A stretch of DNA of 7,781 nucleotides, from IMG/VR virus record IMGVR_UViG_2513020041_000001, positions 1 to 7,781 of that record; one strand, written 5' to 3'. This DNA comes from a virus (taxonomy: Monodnaviria > Loebvirae > Hofneiviricota > Faserviricetes > Tubulavirales). Shown here piece after piece: positions 1 to 7,781 of the stretch (positions within the stretch are counted from its first letter, which is position 1; each line of letters begins with the position of its first letter). Below the pieces are notes generated by a model. It did not search any database, was not told the DNA's origin, and saw nothing but the letters and a program-made list of their open reading frames with translations. The position numbers and the translations under genes are program-made.

Positions 1-1269
1 ATGACTCCAACCAGTTCCGATCTGGTCAGAAATGCCGCTGAGGGCTCAGGCGGCGCAGCCGCCCTAGGTAGTATTGCGAAATGTTCTTCCCCCCCCCCTC
101 CGAAGGCAATGAGGGCCCAAAGATACCAAGCTCTTTCTCAGGCTCGGATCTGGTTAAAACCCTTGGCTGTCAAGGATCCCACCAAGCCTTACGGGTGGAA
201 ATTGCACCGCACGCAAGACTGCCGCTATAAGCGGATCGGCATCGGCGTCACCGTGCATAAAGACATCAAGCATCAGACCGCTTTTTACGGCGATGTAGCC
301 ACCTGTGGCTCCGTGTGGGCTTGTACCGTGTGCTCGGCAAAAATTCAGACTCGTCGACGTCCAGAGGTACAGCAGCTGGTCGATTGGGCTTACGAGAACG
401 ACTATCAGGTCACCATGATTACGTTCACGTTCCCGCATCTGGCATTTGATCGCCTGAAGGAACTGCTCGATGGCCAGAAACGCGCCTTTGAGATCCTCCG
501 CGGCGGTAGCCCATGGGTGAAGTTCAAGCAGCGTCACGGCCTTATCGGCTTTGTGCGCTCTCTGGAGGTCACTCACGGCGATAACGGCTGGCATCCTCAC
601 ACCCATGAGCTTTGGATCACCAAGGGGCTCACAGCCACGAATATGGCCACTTTCGAGAGCGGTATCCGCAAGCGGTGGCGGACTTCCTGCATCCAAGCTG
701 GTTTGCTCGATGAAACCTCGAAGGCGCAACTGTTCGCGTTCGATCTGCACTCGGTCGATTTTCAGTTTCAGGTGTCCACCTCTGACTACCTCGTCAAGAT
801 GGATAACGCGCGCAAATGGGGTGTCGATGCTGAGATGACGGCTCAAGCGTCAAAGGTTGGTGGTGATCGCGTCACGAAGACCATTCACCCCCATGAATTC
901 CTGATGCGTCGCGCACCTGGTGATGATGCCCGCTACCGCGAATACGTAACGGGCATGCATGGGAAAAGCCAGCTGTTCTGGTCTCAGCGCCTAAAAGACG
1001 CCTGCGGCGTAGAGCATGTGACTGACGAAGAGATTGCCAAGGAACAAACCGAAAAAGCGGATCTGCTAGCTCACCTGACCGACAGTCAATGGCGTGTCGT
1101 TCGTGGAAACGATGCCCTTGCTGAAGTGCTCGATGCTGCCGAGCTTGGTGGCTGGCCTGCTATCCGCTCCCTGCTGAAATCGCTTGGCTGCGAGATTCTC
1201 GAGACGGATTGTCATGATCCATTTTTCGAGGTCAATCGTGTTCTTTTCGCTCCAGACGAGCAGGTCTAG
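1..1269 (+). CDS. Rolling-circle replication initiator (HUH endonuclease, gII/RstA-like Rep), 422 aa
   Basis: Long ORF with the three HUH motifs in canonical order: motif 1 MITFTFP (nt ~415-435), motif 2 GWHPHTHELWI (nt ~589-621), motif 3 SDYLVKM with catalytic Tyr and Lys three residues on (nt ~784-801). It is the first gene of the unit, upstream of the ssb and coat genes as in filamentous phages. The N-terminal 36 aa are low-complexity (Ser/Gly/Ala/Pro) and include the C10 tract; the true start could be the internal Met at nt 109. Confidence 0.8.
   Translation: MTPTSSDLVRNAAEGSGGAAALGSIAKCSSPPPPKAMRAQRYQALSQARIWLKPLAVKDPTKPYGWKLHRTQDCRYKRIGIGVTVHKDIKHQTAFYGDVATCGSVWACTVCSAKIQTRRRPEVQQLVDWAYENDYQVTMITFTFPHLAFDRLKELLDGQKRAFEILRGGSPWVKFKQRHGLIGFVRSLEVTHGDNGWHPHTHELWITKGLTATNMATFESGIRKRWRTSCIQAGLLDETSKAQLFAFDLHSVDFQFQVSTSDYLVKMDNARKWGVDAEMTAQASKVGGDRVTKTIHPHEFLMRRAPGDDARYREYVTGMHGKSQLFWSQRLKDACGVEHVTDEEIAKEQTEKADLLAHLTDSQWRVVRGNDALAEVLDAAELGGWPAIRSLLKSLGCEILETDCHDPFFEVNRVLFAPDEQV
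1..1269. repeat. Direct repeat copy 1 (identical to 6513-7781): terminal redundancy of a 6512-bp unit
   Basis: Sequence 1-1269 matches 6513-7781 base for base on inspection, and the ORF track gives identical 422-aa translations and identical embedded ORFs for both copies. Confidence 0.95.
89..98 (+). repeat. C10 homopolymer tract in the 5' end of rep (encodes SSPPPP); second copy at 6601-6610
   Basis: Ten consecutive C residues counted at 89-98 and again at 6601-6610. Confidence 0.9.
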
Positions 1270-1426
1270 CAGCAGTTCTTTCGAGGACTTCGTCATATCG
1301 TTTGCTCCTTTCCAGCAGGTATTCCAATGCCTGCGTATGCGTGCAGTCCATCTCAACCTCAAGCATTTTGAGTTGAGTCCAGACTTCCTTTGAAACCGAG
1401 ATGTTTTTAAGCCGATCAGTGGCCAT
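1232..1426 (-). CDS. Ribbon-helix-helix (CopG/Arc-like) transcriptional regulator, 64 aa
   Basis: Minus-strand ORF MATDRLKNISVSKEVWTQLKMLEVEMDCTHTQALEYLLERSKRYDEVLERTAARPARLERKEHD. It has the RHH pattern of a short N-terminal beta-strand with alternating hydrophobics (RLKNISVS) followed by two helices (WTQLKMLEVEM, THTQALEYLLER), closely resembling CopG-type repressors. ATG is the rc of 1424-1426, with GGAG about 10 nt upstream on the minus strand. It is convergent with rep (38-bp 3' overlap) and divergent from the ssb gene. Confidence 0.55.
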   Translation of the reverse strand: MATDRLKNISVSKEVWTQLKMLEVEMDCTHTQALEYLLERSKRYDEVLERTAARPARLERKEHD

Positions 1427-3739: not shown

Positions 3740-4638
3740 TTCATTTAATTACCGGCGCACCTGGAACGGGAAAATCTCTGCTTGCTGTAGAGATTATTTT
3801 GGATAATTCATTATCTGAAAATCCGCGGCCTATTTTTTCCAACATCAACGGTTTGGACTTTGAGAAGCTGCGCTGCTTTCCTCTTGATAATCCTGAGGAG
3901 TGGCATACCTATCCAGTTGGTTCGCTGCTGGTAATTGATGAATGCCAACGCTATTTCCCACCTCGACCGAACGGGAGCAAGGTTCCGCAGAACATTGCAG
4001 AATTTGAAACCCATAGACACCATGGCCTTGACATCATTCTGTTAACTCAACATCCAACGTTTATTGATGCCAATATCAGAAAGCTTGTTGATCGTCATCA
4101 GCATGGGTTTCGTCCTTTTGGTAAAAAACGTCGGACTCTTCTGGAGTGGACAGGTTGCAATGACAATCCTGAGCCTGCGAAGAATGAATCTAATTCCTTG
4201 CAGAAGCGTAAGCCTTTTGATCCAAAGCTTTTTCAATATTACAAAAGTTCATCTCAGCATACTGATAAGGACCGTACGCCTTGGGCTAAAGTTCTTTTTC
4301 CTTTTGTTATGTTGGTTTTGGTTGTAGTTGCTTTCGGATTTGCATTTTATCGCTTAAGTCCGTCAAAGCCTGAATCGGTTAATTCTAAATTTGATAATTC
4401 AGTTAAAACGGTTGATAAACAGGCAGTCATTCCTACTGCTTCTTATGTAGGTTTTTTCCGTTCTGACAATGGCTTGCCTGCAACAGTGCTTGTTAAGGAC
4501 GGTTCAAATGGTTTCTACCGCGTTGATTATGATTCTTGGAATGTTGCCGGACCTCAGGTGAGCTTTTTTAAGGCAGATTCAACAACGCCCGTGCTTCGGG
4601 TTTCTTCATTAATTTTGGCAAAACTTATACAGGAGTAG
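3736..4638 (+). CDS. Zonula occludens toxin-like assembly ATPase (pI/Zot family), 300 aa
   Basis: ATG 3736 overlaps the upstream stop (ATGA). N-terminal Walker A GAPGTGKS, Walker B-like LLVIDECQ, an internal TM helix (VLFPFVMLVLVVVAFGFAFY) and a C-terminal periplasmic domain, which is the Zot/pI architecture. Confidence 0.8.
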   Translation: MIHLITGAPGTGKSLLAVEIILDNSLSENPRPIFSNINGLDFEKLRCFPLDNPEEWHTYPVGSLLVIDECQRYFPPRPNGSKVPQNIAEFETHRHHGLDIILLTQHPTFIDANIRKLVDRHQHGFRPFGKKRRTLLEWTGCNDNPEPAKNESNSLQKRKPFDPKLFQYYKSSSQHTDKDRTPWAKVLFPFVMLVLVVVAFGFAFYRLSPSKPESVNSKFDNSVKTVDKQAVIPTASYVGFFRSDNGLPATVLVKDGSNGFYRVDYDSWNVAGPQVSFFKADSTTPVLRVSSLILAKLIQE

Positions 4639-4681
4639 ACGGGGGAGGCGGGCGCTTGCGCACGACGCGCACGTCTACTCC
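4632..4681. promoter_or_regulatory. GC-rich nested inverted repeat spanning the Zot stop codon, upstream of the secretin gene
   Basis: Perfect 10-bp inverted repeat ggagtagacg (4632-4641) / cgtctactcc (4672-4681) enclosing an inner hairpin tgcgc (4657-4661) / gcgca (4667-4671). No T-run follows on either strand, so it is not a canonical intrinsic terminator. Confidence 0.4.
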
Positions 4682-4696
4682 AACCTGCTGACATTT

Positions 4697-5932
4697 ATGA
4701 AAAAACTGATCGCATTCACGTTTTTGATACTGTCTGGATTAGCTCACGCTGAAAACCTGACGCTTTCCTATGATCAAGTGCCCGTCACTCAGCTCCTAGT
4801 CGAAACCTACCGTAATCGACTTGAGAAATCATATGTCATTGACCCCAGCGTTGTTTCCAACAACAGTCTTGTTTCTATTAATGTTCGCGATCTTCCAATT
4901 GAGAGATTGGAATCTACTGTTGATAGCATCCTTAAAACTGCTGGTATCAATAAGGTAGTTGGTTCCGATGGGCTCATTCTTTTCAGCGCTCGCTCATATG
5001 ATTATGCAAACTCTCTCCCTCCCGTTCCAGCTTCTGTTGCTTCTCCTGGTATGGCATCGCTAGGCGCTGATCTTCCACCGGATATCCCTCTTCAAAATGG
5101 GAGTATTCCGGATAACTTCACCATTTTTCTTGCTCATAATCGGCCAACTTCTTTTTTACAGCCAATTGCCAATAAATTGCTTGGTACCAATTACGAACCT
5201 TCCGACCAGGTGTTTTTGTCGGGGGATGCCAAGCAGGTTGAAAAAGTGCGGTTCATCCTGGAGCAGCTCGACACCGCTCCGAATGAAATCATGGCTCAGG
5301 CTGTTGTTCTCGAGTTCTCAACCCAGCGTGTGAAAGGGTCCAGTTTTGAGATGGCAATCTCTGCTTTGTCCGGCCACCTTAAAATCGGTGTTGATTCCTT
5401 GCTCCCTGCCGGTGGGAATTTCATCAAGTGGTCTTCCACGGATCTGACTGCCGTCCTTTCTGCCGTATCCGGTGATTCTCGTTTTCATGTTGTTTCGACT
5501 CCAACGCTGCGCGTTGTTAGTGGTGGTACTGGTCGCCTGTTGGTTGGTCAGGAAGTGCCTACCCTGTCGTCTTCGTCTCTCGATAATTCAGGCAATGCGG
5601 TGCAGTCGATTGAGTACCGATCCGCAGGTGTGATCATGGAGCTGAAGCCCACCATTCTCCGTAATCGTATTGACCTGGAGCTGAATCAACAGATTTCCGA
5701 TTTCGCTCAAAACAATCTTTCTGGCATCGATTCTCCGACGCTGACTAAGCGTGAGTTGACCACCAAAATTTCGGCCCAGCCGGGGGAGCTGATTGTGCTT
5801 GGCGGGCTCGATCAGACGAAAAAAACAGATCAGAGCCGAGGCCTGTCGTTCCTTCCGTCCTTCATGGGCGGTAGCTCTTCAACTGACGCAGATACCCAGA
5901 TCCTGCTGGTTTTGCAGGTAACGAAAATATAG
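4697..5932 (+). CDS. Secretin (pIV/GspD-like outer-membrane export channel), 411 aa
   Basis: N-terminal signal peptide MKKLIAFTFLILSGLAHA. The C-terminal half carries secretin-domain signatures (VVSTPTLRVVSGGTGRLLVGQEVP, EYRSAGVIMELKPTI, GELIVLGGLDQTKKTDQSRGLSFLPSFMG, TQILLVLQVTKI) matching the conserved pattern of phage pIV and T2SS GspD. Confidence 0.8.
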   Translation: MKKLIAFTFLILSGLAHAENLTLSYDQVPVTQLLVETYRNRLEKSYVIDPSVVSNNSLVSINVRDLPIERLESTVDSILKTAGINKVVGSDGLILFSARSYDYANSLPPVPASVASPGMASLGADLPPDIPLQNGSIPDNFTIFLAHNRPTSFLQPIANKLLGTNYEPSDQVFLSGDAKQVEKVRFILEQLDTAPNEIMAQAVVLEFSTQRVKGSSFEMAISALSGHLKIGVDSLLPAGGNFIKWSSTDLTAVLSAVSGDSRFHVVSTPTLRVVSGGTGRLLVGQEVPTLSSSSLDNSGNAVQSIEYRSAGVIMELKPTILRNRIDLELNQQISDFAQNNLSGIDSPTLTKRELTTKISAQPGELIVLGGLDQTKKTDQSRGLSFLPSFMGGSSSTDADTQILLVLQVTKI

Positions 5933-5933
5933 C

Positions 5934-5961
5934 TTTACACGGTAATTACCGGGTCTATACT
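5934..5961 (+). promoter_or_regulatory. Candidate sigma70 promoter with an embedded 12-bp perfect palindrome (operator)
   Basis: -35-like tttaca (5934-5939) and -10-like tatact (5956-5961) with a 16-bp spacer; the perfect palindrome cggtaattaccg (5940-5951) lies in the spacer. It is followed by RBS aaggagg (5974-5980) and ATG 5989. Confidence 0.45.
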
Positions 5962-5988
5962 GGAGCCATATCAAAGGAGGCCGCTACC

Positions 5989-6159
5989 ATGGCAAATCAA
6001 TCCGCATCATCCGAAAAAATGCTTAACGTGAAGGTTCCCGAGGATCTCAAGCAGTCTTTTACGCTGGCTGTTGGGGCTCAAGATCAGACCGTTTCCCATG
6101 TCATCCGCGACTTCATGCGCAAATATGTCGCCCAACATGGTCAGGGGAAGCTGCTGTGA
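5989..6159 (+). CDS. Ribbon-helix-helix DNA-binding protein, 56 aa (absent from the ORF track)
   Basis: ATG 5989 with near-consensus SD aaggagg 8 nt upstream, stop TGA 6157-6159. Translation MANQSASSEKMLNVKVPEDLKQSFTLAVGAQDQTVSHVIRDFMRKYVAQHGQGKLL shows a beta-strand (LNVKV), helix A (PEDLKQSFTLAVGA) and helix B (QTVSHVIRDFMRKYV), the RHH fold pattern. Confidence 0.6.
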   Translation: MANQSASSEKMLNVKVPEDLKQSFTLAVGAQDQTVSHVIRDFMRKYVAQHGQGKLL

Positions 6160-6323
6160 ATATACTTCCGGTCACCCCTGCTTCTGCCGTGGCAAGCGCT
6201 GTCACGTGCCCTTCGTTTTCCCTTGACCCGTCCGTGGTCGTCCTCGCCCTTTTTCTGCCCTTTGTCCTTGTAGGGGCTTACTACCTTTTCCGGCTCGCCA
6301 AGGCTGATCTTCGTGGATTGTAA
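6156..6323 (+). CDS. Small single-pass membrane protein, 55 aa (absent from the ORF track)
   Basis: GTG 6156 overlaps the RHH stop (GTGA), with SD-like gggaag (6145-6150) 5 nt upstream. Translation MNILPVTPASAVASAVTCPSFSLDPSVVVLALFLPFVLVGAYYLFRLAKADLRGL has one hydrophobic helix followed by a basic C-terminus. Stop TAA 6321-6323 is followed directly by a hairpin. Confidence 0.45.
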   Translation: MNILPVTPASAVASAVTCPSFSLDPSVVVLALFLPFVLVGAYYLFRLAKADLRGL

Positions 6324-6325
6324 AG

Positions 6326-6374
6326 CCGGTTCTAGACGCCTGAATGGCTTCATCTTTCAGGTGGCTAGAACCGG
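6326..6374. promoter_or_regulatory. Hairpin: 10-bp perfect inverted repeat with 29-nt loop at the start of the intergenic region
   Basis: ccggttctag (6326-6335) / ctagaaccgg (6365-6374). It begins 3 nt after the stop of the small membrane-protein ORF. Confidence 0.5.
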
Positions 6375-6382
6375 AATCGATC

Positions 6383-6423
6383 TTTCTGTAGACCAAATTT
6401 CGTAGACGTACTTTTTCGTAGAC
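6383..6423 (+). repeat. Three iteron-like direct repeats, TTTC(T)GTAGAC
   Basis: tttctgtagac (6383-6393), tttcgtagac (6398-6407), tttcgtagac (6414-6423), spaced about 14-16 bp apart in the same orientation, upstream of rep. Confidence 0.55.
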
Positions 6424-6447
6424 AAAAAAAAGGCCCCATGAGGGGCC
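6424..6447 (-). terminator. GC hairpin flanked by an A8 run (T8 on the minus strand): terminator-like on the minus strand, or an origin/packaging hairpin
   Basis: A8 (6424-6431), stem ggcccc (6432-6437) / ggggcc (6442-6447), loop atga. Read on the minus strand this is a 6-bp GC stem followed by T8, the canonical intrinsic-terminator shape. On the + strand no T-run follows. Confidence 0.4.
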
Positions 6448-6512
6448 CTTGACACTCGTGAAGCCCCTTTCCCGGCAAGGCGCGGAGCTTCACAACGCAG
6501 GGATATTCTAGC

Positions 6513-7781
6513 ATGACTCCAACCAGTTCCGATCTGGTCAGAAATGCCGCTGAGGGCTCAGGCGGCGCAGCCGCCCTAGGTAGTATTGCGAAATGTTCTT
6601 CCCCCCCCCCTCCGAAGGCAATGAGGGCCCAAAGATACCAAGCTCTTTCTCAGGCTCGGATCTGGTTAAAACCCTTGGCTGTCAAGGATCCCACCAAGCC
6701 TTACGGGTGGAAATTGCACCGCACGCAAGACTGCCGCTATAAGCGGATCGGCATCGGCGTCACCGTGCATAAAGACATCAAGCATCAGACCGCTTTTTAC
6801 GGCGATGTAGCCACCTGTGGCTCCGTGTGGGCTTGTACCGTGTGCTCGGCAAAAATTCAGACTCGTCGACGTCCAGAGGTACAGCAGCTGGTCGATTGGG
6901 CTTACGAGAACGACTATCAGGTCACCATGATTACGTTCACGTTCCCGCATCTGGCATTTGATCGCCTGAAGGAACTGCTCGATGGCCAGAAACGCGCCTT
7001 TGAGATCCTCCGCGGCGGTAGCCCATGGGTGAAGTTCAAGCAGCGTCACGGCCTTATCGGCTTTGTGCGCTCTCTGGAGGTCACTCACGGCGATAACGGC
7101 TGGCATCCTCACACCCATGAGCTTTGGATCACCAAGGGGCTCACAGCCACGAATATGGCCACTTTCGAGAGCGGTATCCGCAAGCGGTGGCGGACTTCCT
7201 GCATCCAAGCTGGTTTGCTCGATGAAACCTCGAAGGCGCAACTGTTCGCGTTCGATCTGCACTCGGTCGATTTTCAGTTTCAGGTGTCCACCTCTGACTA
7301 CCTCGTCAAGATGGATAACGCGCGCAAATGGGGTGTCGATGCTGAGATGACGGCTCAAGCGTCAAAGGTTGGTGGTGATCGCGTCACGAAGACCATTCAC
7401 CCCCATGAATTCCTGATGCGTCGCGCACCTGGTGATGATGCCCGCTACCGCGAATACGTAACGGGCATGCATGGGAAAAGCCAGCTGTTCTGGTCTCAGC
7501 GCCTAAAAGACGCCTGCGGCGTAGAGCATGTGACTGACGAAGAGATTGCCAAGGAACAAACCGAAAAAGCGGATCTGCTAGCTCACCTGACCGACAGTCA
7601 ATGGCGTGTCGTTCGTGGAAACGATGCCCTTGCTGAAGTGCTCGATGCTGCCGAGCTTGGTGGCTGGCCTGCTATCCGCTCCCTGCTGAAATCGCTTGGC
7701 TGCGAGATTCTCGAGACGGATTGTCATGATCCATTTTTCGAGGTCAATCGTGTTCTTTTCGCTCCAGACGAGCAGGTCTAG
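6513..7781 (+). CDS. Rolling-circle replication initiator (second, identical copy of 1-1269)
   Basis: Identical 422-aa translation to the ORF at 1-1269, with the same HUH motifs. ATG 6513 has no obvious SD upstream (gggatattctagc), which adds to the doubt about the true start (alternative Met at 6621). Confidence 0.8.
   Translation: MTPTSSDLVRNAAEGSGGAAALGSIAKCSSPPPPKAMRAQRYQALSQARIWLKPLAVKDPTKPYGWKLHRTQDCRYKRIGIGVTVHKDIKHQTAFYGDVATCGSVWACTVCSAKIQTRRRPEVQQLVDWAYENDYQVTMITFTFPHLAFDRLKELLDGQKRAFEILRGGSPWVKFKQRHGLIGFVRSLEVTHGDNGWHPHTHELWITKGLTATNMATFESGIRKRWRTSCIQAGLLDETSKAQLFAFDLHSVDFQFQVSTSDYLVKMDNARKWGVDAEMTAQASKVGGDRVTKTIHPHEFLMRRAPGDDARYREYVTGMHGKSQLFWSQRLKDACGVEHVTDEEIAKEQTEKADLLAHLTDSQWRVVRGNDALAEVLDAAELGGWPAIRSLLKSLGCEILETDCHDPFFEVNRVLFAPDEQV
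6513..7781. repeat. Direct repeat copy 2 (identical to 1-1269)
   Basis: Exact duplication of window positions 1-1269, extending to the window end. Confidence 0.95.

Follow-up and report, generated by a model that had tools for sequence, protein, structure and literature searches.

A predicted countertranscript gene in the composite intergenic region upstream of rep in an inovirus related to Pseudomonas phage PMBT54

The intergenic region upstream of rep

The stretch of DNA analysed here, referred to as the window, comprises the 7,781 nucleotides of IMG/VR record IMGVR_UViG_2513020041_000001 and holds a circular inovirus genome of 6512 bp written past its own start, positions 1-1269 being identical to 6513-7781. 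The region of interest is the 189-bp gap (6324-6512) between a 55-amino-acid (aa) open reading frame (ORF) and the initiator gene rep, with which it is circularly continuous. A first-pass annotation, made from the letters alone, had interpreted this gap in the manner of the Ff phages, as the site of the replication origins and packaging signal, with iterons for Rep. We propose instead that it is a composite of elements acting on opposite strands, an explanation that we hold with moderate confidence and only as a whole: the right half would be the gene of a countertranscript RNA (ctRNA) controlling rep, hairpin 1 would act in the plus sense, and Rep would nick inside rep and not within 6324-6512.

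All the features named in the first-pass annotation are present where it placed them, and beyond chance. The inverted repeat of hairpin 1 (CCGGTTCTAG at 6326-6335, CTAGAACCGG at 6365-6374) is exact and grows to 19-nt arms (6326-6344 and 6356-6374) that are 89% complementary, three same-orientation GTAGAC motifs begin at 6388, 6402 and 6418 with spacings of 14 and 16 nt, and the GC hairpin pairs GGCCCC (6432-6437) with GGGGCC (6442-6447) just after an A8 run (6424-6431). Of the A8/T8 flanks ascribed to this hairpin, the A8 is confirmed, the T-run being confined to the minus strand. A third hairpin, overlooked previously, pairs GTGAAGCCCC (6458-6467) with GGAGCTTCAC (6484-6493). Folded as single-stranded DNA (ssDNA), the 189 nt of the plus strand reach -35.1 kcal/mol (z = -3.4), and none of 200 shuffles is as stable. 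Comparison with relatives supports the earlier view that this is a functional, conserved regulatory and structural region of the replication module.

The comparison set consisted of about 50 relatives in three groups, namely complete genomes of the window's clade (Rep 57-77% identical), a more distant inovirus clade (Rep 42-59% identical), and plasmids of 2.3-4 kb with homologous Rep (p47L, pYQ39, pA22J1, pP33-3, POT9AD_p, pPSEST03 and pW11NP1); L numbers tell individual sequences apart. The sole related isolate is Pseudomonas phage PMBT54 (L001), with Rep 73% identical, in whose published description the origins and intergenic region are not discussed. Rep homologues are plentiful in metagenomes, on 6-7 kb contigs. 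When Rep alone was the query, genome and viral contigs gave no relatives, and an alignment-based query was required; of the sequences that a pattern scan of metagenomes picked up, one was a true relative (L139) and five were chance terminators.

Table 1. Observed and predicted features of the window
Feature	Position	Strand	Remarks
Hairpin 1	6326-6374	+	19-nt arms, 11-nt loop; plus-strand-specific
Direct repeats TTTC(N)GTAGAC (three)	6383-6423 (6383-6393, 6398-6407, 6414-6423)	+	Lineage-specific
Intrinsic terminator	6424-6450	-	Stem-loop 6450..6429, then U8 (complement of A8, 6431..6424); 9-pair stem + T8
Stem-loop I (hairpin 3)	6458-6493	-	11 continuous pairs on the minus strand
Predicted ctRNA, ~75 nt	6421-6498	-	Start near 6498; 3' end in U-run, ~6424-6427
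Extended -10 TGcTAGAAT	6505-6513	-	Overlaps rep start codon; complement of conserved 'attctagcATG'
Shine-Dalgarno and start codon of rep	6499-6515	+	AGGGA 6499-6503; start codon 6513-6515
Candidate plus-origin core	6561-6594 (= 49-82)	+	GGCGGC-GCA-GCCGCC GNA-triloop hairpin (6561-6575), then CTAGGTAGTATTGCGAAAT (6576-6594)
rep	1-1269 (first copy)		Pfam Rep_1, E = 5e-9, modest match
Ribbon-helix-helix (RHH) gene	1232-1426	-	
Strongest plus-biased ssDNA hairpin	4632-4681	+	Between zot and the secretin gene; E+ -20.0 vs E- -14.9
Promoter-like site TTTACA-16-TATACT	5934-5961	+	10/12 match; 0.4 expected in shuffles
RHH_9 gene (56 aa)	5989-6159	+	PF19839, E = 9e-4, under curated cut-off; same position in related contigs
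55-aa hydrophobic ORF	6156-6323	+	Stop 2 nt 5' of hairpin 1

A predicted antisense RNA against the rep leader

All relatives have, immediately ahead of rep, an A-run and then a GC-rich hairpin whose stem sequence varies. In the A-run hairpins of 35 distinct relatives, the stem positions that depart from Watson-Crick pairing are A.C on the plus strand in 20 cases and G.T in 2, so that the stems are perfect only as minus-sense RNA with G.U pairs. In the window, the minus-strand GC hairpin with its T8 is the only intrinsic-terminator-like site in 5850-6700. The first-pass annotation had rightly seen that this hairpin is terminator-shaped on the minus strand only, and of the two roles that it offered, the comparative data favour termination of an antisense transcript; the other, that of an ssDNA hairpin in a minus-strand origin, does not agree with stems that fully pair in the minus sense only.

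Stem-loop I precedes the terminator on the minus strand and shows compensatory changes in 7 of its 9 pairs. The 78-nt minus-sense RNA that contains both folds at -40.3 kcal/mol (z = -4.3, 0 of 200 shuffles), the fold of the plus-sense leader being unremarkable (z = -0.65). RNAalifold recovers both hairpins from nine minus-sense sequences, with compensatory changes in 11 of 20 pairs, and the covariation test finds 94.9% of cells paired, with no shuffle out of 500 matching any measure and the signal being lost when partners are slid. In the strand test, 23 cells of the whole RNA pair in the minus sense only and 3 in the plus sense only; the terminator stem accounts for 12 minus-only wobble cells and no plus-only ones. 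A covariance model of the two-hairpin RNA gives one match per class-A genome, at the same place and on the same strand; its matches at the corresponding position in the plasmids and the distant clade are weak. For the single-hairpin class, per-sequence hairpin analysis was used, MAFFT and RNAalifold having aligned the variable stems poorly.

The minus-strand extended -10 is also conserved, with the variants TGcTAATAT in L004 and L007, TGTATTCT in L008 and TGTATGAT in L128. Its counterpart in the plasmids and the distant clade is TAnnAT within rep codons 2-4, where the residues vary (DS, DD, DN, DH, HH, DC) and TA..AT is invariant, and in both clades this -10 always lies 60-75 nt before the U-run. 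The perfect hexamer TTGACA (6449-6454), previously considered as the -35 of a rep promoter, is present, but no plus-strand promoter was found there; it sits in the spacer between the two hairpins of the predicted antisense RNA, has no -10 partner and is kept only in the closest three or four relatives (L002, L012, L139).

The placement of the antisense elements against the rep leader is the same in at least 25 relatives and in five plasmids with homologous Rep (p47L, pA22J1, pP33-3, POT9AD_p and pPSEST03). The predicted RNA, read from 6498 to 6421, is complementary to the leader, which ends at the Shine-Dalgarno (SD) sequence, with CAAGGA or CAGGGA conserved 9-10 nt 5' of the rep ATG; a box just 5' of the A-run (AGAC or AGGC) is weakly conserved. 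The loop of stem-loop I, 5'-GCGCCUUGCCGGGAAA-3' in the minus sense (6483..6468), carries a CUUG motif of the YUNR type, and CCTTG(G)CC is kept on the minus strand of this loop throughout the window's clade. The distant clade has a single terminator hairpin with a nearly invariant sense-strand loop, TGCTTGGCGGCT, which holds TTGGCG, that is, 5'-rUUGGCG-3', the loop motif of the target of ColIb-P9 Inc RNA. A related loop motif lies on the opposite strand in the window's clade and in pYQ39/L021. In kissing loops, the YUNR U-turn can sit in either partner (PMC4485353), so that a flip of the motif between strands from one clade to the other is to be expected.

Taken together, these features suggest the following mechanism. 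Minus-strand transcription would start near 6498 from the extended -10 over the rep ATG, and the ctRNA would fold stem-loop I, with its CUUG U-turn motif in the loop, and end at the GC hairpin and U8, the complement of the A8 and GC stem described previously. Being fully complementary to the rep mRNA leader just 5' of the SD sequence, it would inhibit rep translation through loop-loop pairing, set the copy number of the replicative form and probably also determine incompatibility or immunity between related phages. The RHH_9 protein would act alongside the ctRNA, probably by repressing the 5934-5961 promoter, as CopG does with RNAII in pMV158. What computation shows is the structures with their strand bias and covariation, the terminator, the conserved -10 and the nucleotide-level constraint in rep; that the RNA is made and represses rep, and the roles of hairpin 1, the repeats and the nick motif, are inferred. 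The best-supported reading is thus an RNA-based control of rep of a known kind, that of the countertranscripts of rolling-circle-replicating (RCR) plasmids, which would be new for inoviruses and for this Rep group. A literature search found no paper that ties antisense RNA to filamentous-phage initiators. The plasmid members of this Rep group have been described as a novel replication system whose origin was not identified (PMC6015842), and the origin and control of the p47L/pNI10/pW11NP1 plasmid group are undescribed.

A candidate plus origin inside rep

The plus-strand origin had been expected within 6324-6512. However, no plus-strand sequence there is conserved across the Rep family, in contrast to a nucleotide-constrained CTTGGTA or CTAGGTA inside the 5' end of rep, and the 11-mers common to all nine class-A genomes are confined to rep-internal blocks, an array in the second intergenic region (IG2) and a T-run, with no origin-like block in 6324-6512. 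The rep element, located 65 nt downstream of the region, has the form C-T-(T/A)-GGTA-nn-A-n-TGCGAAAT and is carried on the rep-sense strand by 48 distinct members, whose Rep identity goes as low as 29%. Its codon choice is strongly biased (GGT in 44, GCG in 45, AAA in 48 and CTT or CTA in 43 of the 48, with 12-16 expected from the same ORFs), and the two residues between the fixed codons make up eight different dipeptides, a combination that points to selection at the nucleotide level within translated sequence. In all ten members of the window's clade, a GC hairpin directly adjoins the element. The core of the element is similar to CTTG^ATA, located as the nick core on the rep-sense strand of pC194 and pUB110, and in the Xanthomonas phage phiLf an origin inside gene II, tested by deletion, combines CTTG with a GCGNAGC hairpin. 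The stretch 6561-6594 is therefore the best candidate for the Rep nick site, with CTAG^GTA (6579/6580) as the suggested nick; an RNA-level or peptide-level role is the alternative.

Two other CTTG-type sequences were considered and rejected. CTTGACA (6448-6454), with 6 of the 7 bases of CTTGATA, could have been a pC194-type nick site, and is replaced by CTTCTGTAG, CTCTGTTTC or CCCAAAAC in relatives with Rep about 70-77% identical. A minus-strand CTTGATA upstream of rep in L021 and L023 proved to be coding sequence (YQV), rep starting earlier there.

Further peculiarities were observed at the 5' end of rep. A C10 homopolymer (89-98, equal to 6601-6610) encodes PPPP directly after the conserved element and might be a site of slippage; most family members, though not all, have a C-rich run of 5-10 after the element. 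The conserved, alignable part of Rep starts at about residue 35, the codon of Met37 being at 109-111, NCBI annotates the plasmid homologues with rep starts 3' of the conserved element, and lengths of 387-395 aa occur among cluster members; an internal start giving a shorter Rep is thus possible. In p47L (L125, 1875-1972), the element and its flank form a 49-bp tandem duplication, with the upstream reading frame broken, which may be a by-product of aberrant rolling-circle termination.

Hairpin 1, the direct repeats and the Ff-style reading

Hairpin 1 behaves as a plus-strand structure. In the four genomes with its long form, the plus fold is favoured over the minus fold by 5-15 kcal/mol, and the G.U(T) pairs number 2-5 in the plus-strand stem and 0-1 in the minus-strand stem. 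Among the 70-nt windows of the genome, folded as ssDNA, hairpin 1 ranks second in stability (-19.0, against a mean of -6.6 and a standard deviation of 2.8). The earlier proposal that the hairpins of the region serve as ssDNA signals is hence plausible for hairpin 1, plus-strand-specific and very stable, but not for the GC hairpin and hairpin 3. Hairpin 1 is most likely a packaging signal or minus-strand origin in the packaged ssDNA; together with the 4632-4681 hairpin, whose stem base contains GTAGAC/GTCTAC, it provides candidates for these two functions, either way round. A structure in the mRNA is also a candidate role for it. At the place of hairpin 1, other relatives have a short hairpin with a 5-nt loop, and in Xanthomonas inoviruses short hairpins suffice as packaging signals. 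The subtypes of RHH_9 follow the type of hairpin 1 and not the repeats. A dif/XerCD-like nature of hairpin 1 was considered and dropped, no likeness to the dif arms being seen by eye.

In the same zot-secretin gap as the 4632-4681 hairpin, relatives carry a hairpin with the loop TAGCGTAGCG (L004 1055-1130, L005 6335-6405, L007 5140-5215); with regard to this loop, TAGCGT is the CS-6 motif of ssoA-type single-strand origins.

The GTAGAC repeats are real and probably bind a protein, Rep being a possible partner. Clusters of three same-strand 6-mers inside 40 nt have an expectation of 0.13 per simulated genome and of about 0.004 for the region, and the genome holds only two, GTAGAC and the CGTGTT array (1511-1534); Tandem Repeats Finder reported nothing at the GTAGAC repeats. 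L002 carries them unaltered, as does L139 save for a spacer shorter by one T; they are degenerate and heterogeneous in L012, of GTAGC type in L001, L005 and L013, and absent in L004, L007, L008, L011 and L128. Between the window and L002, two blocks, one with the repeats, the antisense region and the first 79 nt of rep and the other with the minus-strand RHH gene, are 93-98% identical, and the rep core is 62-85% identical, the repeats thus being co-inherited with the antisense block and the Rep termini and not with the Rep core. Comparison of repeat type with RHH_9, the minus-strand RHH protein and Rep gave no clean co-varying partner. At the position of the repeats, the distant clade has a plus-strand extended -10 (TGtTAnnnT), from which the rep mRNA would start at the A-run.

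Other arrays were seen in the window and elsewhere. IG2 contains, at 1505-1540, CGTGTTnn octamers (CGTGTT at 1513, 1521 and 1529, and a degenerate copy) with TTGACC/TTGACG hexamers, an array that hardly differs between any of the relatives with the minus-strand RHH gene. The array probably serves the structural operon as operator and promoter, with the minus-strand RHH protein binding it; the N-terminus of this protein is invariant across the clade, which fits the conserved CGTGTT array as its operator, and not the GTAGAC repeats. A scan for GTAGAC arrays matched only unrelated large phages, in whose contigs (32-60 kb; L141 4735-4790, and the minus strand of L142 and L143) 4-5 GTAGAC repeats of similar spacing follow a gene end and precede a terminator hairpin, probably as a coincidental binding-site array. 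A different element, structured and conserved, consists of ggggtgtgggg...ccccgcacccc followed by CCTGGCCTCGCCGAGAGCTCCCGGAGGG; it lies within the annotated 'ORF12' of PMBT54 (6970-7055) and upstream of the rep region in L015, L017, L103, L104, L110, L111 and L126, and the window lacks it.

Much of this material could also be read in the Ff style, in which the hairpins would be the ssDNA packaging signal and minus origin, GTAGAC the Rep iterons, and the plus nick would lie within or beside these repeats. The position upstream of rep is that of Ff phages, hairpin 1 is plus-specific and one of the two strongest ssDNA hairpins, and the three direct repeats beside a hairpin resemble the nic and bind layout of pMV158 (PMC1851628). 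Moreover, the repeats share GTAG with the conserved GGTAGTA element in rep, and two repeat units of L012 changed together, to GCAYAC. Nevertheless, the GC hairpin and hairpin 3 pair properly in the minus sense only, the region lacks a plus-strand sequence conserved family-wide, and the repeats are heterogeneous in L012, missing from five clade relatives with Rep 57-77% identical, and inherited together with the regulatory blocks, unlike the diverging Rep core. Rolling-circle termination would also be expected to make an arrangement of three tandem nick sites unstable. The Ff-style reading thus obtains partial support, and as an account of the whole region it seems unlikely.

Alternative explanations of the antisense elements

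The minus-sense -10 and terminator could instead constitute an RNA-polymerase-dependent minus-strand origin, where the host polymerase would make, on the plus ssDNA, a short minus-sense primer ended by the hairpin and U-run, as in Ff or ssoA. This explanation draws on the same elements as the ctRNA, and RNA-polymerase-primed ssoA origins are known in RCR plasmids (PMC5703833), but it appears improbable. An intrinsic terminator requires the RNA to leave its template, which would be disfavoured on ssDNA, and the promoter does not lie inside a plus-strand hairpin that would make it double-stranded. In addition, the element is fixed to the rep leader and SD sequence, in the plasmids too, which fits translational control, and loops of the YUNR and UUGGCG kind are characteristic of RNA-RNA pairing.

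Another possibility is that the conserved-loop hairpin (hairpin 3, or the GCTTGGCGGC-loop hairpin of distant relatives) is the nick hairpin of the double-strand origin in this Rep family, in which case CTTG would be the nick core. RCR nick hairpins typically have such a conserved loop, carried on covarying stems just ahead of rep, and CTTG matches the core of pC194 and pUB110. With rep in the same orientation, however, the motif is rep-sense in the distant clade, whereas the window's clade and pYQ39/L021 have it on the other strand. A nick site would hardly be expected to flip in this way; the wobbles of the stems speak for minus-sense pairing, and the CTTGGTA inside rep is better conserved and of fixed orientation. 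A nick hairpin at this place is therefore quite improbable.

Finally, it is very improbable that the A8/GC hairpin is a mere insulating terminator, with no small RNA, for long antisense transcripts from the minus-strand RHH gene (1232-1426) through rep, since, although this gene downstream of rep would be read towards the hairpin, L008-L010 and the small plasmids lack it and still keep the terminator, the hairpin and the -10, the last conserved 60-75 nt upstream of the terminator.

The ctRNA explanation itself has several points against it. The RNA, its ends and its effect are all predicted. The predicted RNA ends just short of the SD sequence, so that the manner of inhibition (by a kissing complex, a structural change or RNase cleavage) is not evident. 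With a weak -35 region (TCGGAA), the promoter depends on the extended -10, which a general two-hexamer promoter scan did not call at 6505-6513. The aligned sequences share kinship, so that the shuffle statistics overstate significance, and Rfam contains no matching family, the best being ctRNA_p42d at 18.7 bits (gathering score 50, E = 3.2). The nearly invariant GCTTGGCGGC loop of the distant clade is unusually conserved for an incompatibility determinant and would fit a protein-recognised site as well. As regards the other elements, the repeats and hairpin 1 are without an assigned partner, the rep element is translated in frame, with peptide-level constraint contributing too, and the GC hairpin abuts that element in only 27 of the 48 members overall.

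Genome context and implications

The genome further encodes a single-stranded DNA-binding protein (ssDBP), major coat protein B, a gIII-like protein, DUF2523, Zot and secretin. Relatives keep the order promoter, RHH_9, small ORF, intergenic region and rep, and L011 and L012 also have a small ORF of similar size ahead of rep. The RHH_9 protein is a candidate CopG-like transcriptional repressor. The site at 5934-5961, whose hexamers are identical in PMBT54, is the probable promoter of the transcript of RHH_9, the 55-aa ORF and rep; a perfect 12-bp palindrome, CGGTAATTACCG (5940-5951), lies inside its spacer, and the two together likely form an autoregulated operator.

The rep and regulatory cassette (intergenic region, rep, minus-strand RHH gene, IG2 and ssDBP) is joined to two unrelated structural modules, Coat_B/DUF2523 and Phage_coatGP8/DUF5455, as seen between the window and L002, L008 and L012, which indicates modular exchange among these inoviruses.

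What is known of replication control in filamentous phages is based mainly on Ff, where it is mediated by the proteins gpV and gpX, and on repressor-controlled prophages. If the ctRNA acts as proposed, inoviruses would regulate their episomal copy number as RCR plasmids do, which would provide a simple molecular basis for incompatibility or immunity between co-circulating phages and account for the movement of the rep and regulatory cassette between unrelated structural modules. Moreover, this Rep group would gain testable origin and control elements, useful for Pseudomonas vectors or phagemids.

A tentative extension concerns the whole lineage. Rep_1-type replicons, namely inoviruses of Pseudomonas and other Proteobacteria and the p47L/pNI10/pW11NP1 plasmids, might share a UUGGCG/YUNR kissing-loop countertranscript and a plus origin contained in codons 1-30 of rep (hairpin and CTTG^GTAnnAnTGCGAAAT), with the GTAGAC repeats as the specificity-determining 'bind' locus of Rep. 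In that case, the phage countertranscript would be an RNA determinant of copy control and superinfection immunity swapped as a cassette from one unrelated structural module to another, and the origin sequence would shape the N-terminus of Rep.

Comparison with known systems

The Ff phages (f1, M13 and fd) likewise have a non-coding region with stable hairpins upstream of the initiator gene, and the Ff packaging signal is a plus-specific hairpin directly after the last gene, like hairpin 1. However, the sequences are not similar, the initiator belongs to a different family, two of the window's three hairpins work in the opposite sense, and the region lacks a conserved plus-strand nick sequence. 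As in the Xanthomonas phages phiLf and phiLf-UK, the putative origin of the window lies towards the 5' end of the initiator coding sequence, where a recognition sequence of CTTG type stands beside a GNA-triloop hairpin; GCGCAGC, central to 6561-6575 and next to CTAGGTA, corresponds to GCGNAGC in phiLf. The initiator family is again different, CTTG precedes the GNA hairpin in phiLf and follows it here, and the core of the window's element, inferred from sequence, is CTAG and not CTTG.

ColIb-P9 Inc RNA and R1 CopA are stem-loop antisense RNAs directed against a rep leader through a U-turn recognition loop, as proposed here, and the sense loop of the distant clade contains the exact TTGGCG of the ColIb-P9 system. 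Both plasmids replicate by the theta mode and also use a leader peptide or pseudoknot, whereas no complementary pseudoknot partner was found in the window, whose own loop is CUUGCC and lies on the antisense RNA. The plasmids pC194 and pUB110 belong to the same Rep family, Rep_1, and countertranscripts have been predicted in their Rep translation-initiation region, with a proposed block of translation (PMC5703833). They are Gram-positive plasmids, their nick site CTTGATA is upstream of rep, and they have no detectable sequence or structure in common with the region of the window.

In pMV158, an RCR plasmid with Rep_2, whereas the phage Rep is of the Rep_1 family, the order is copG, rnaII and repB. 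The two systems have no sequence similarity, the element of the window belonging to a filamentous phage; a 55-aa ORF, hairpin 1 and the repeats separate the RHH gene from the RNA gene in the window, and RNAII is 48 nt long with one hairpin, in contrast to the approximately 75 nt and two stem-loops of the predicted RNA. Nevertheless, both place an RHH repressor gene upstream of rep in one operon, and in both the leader carries, on the opposite strand, a countertranscript, predicted in the case of the window, that ends in a GC hairpin and U-run and is complementary to the mRNA just upstream of the translation signals of rep.

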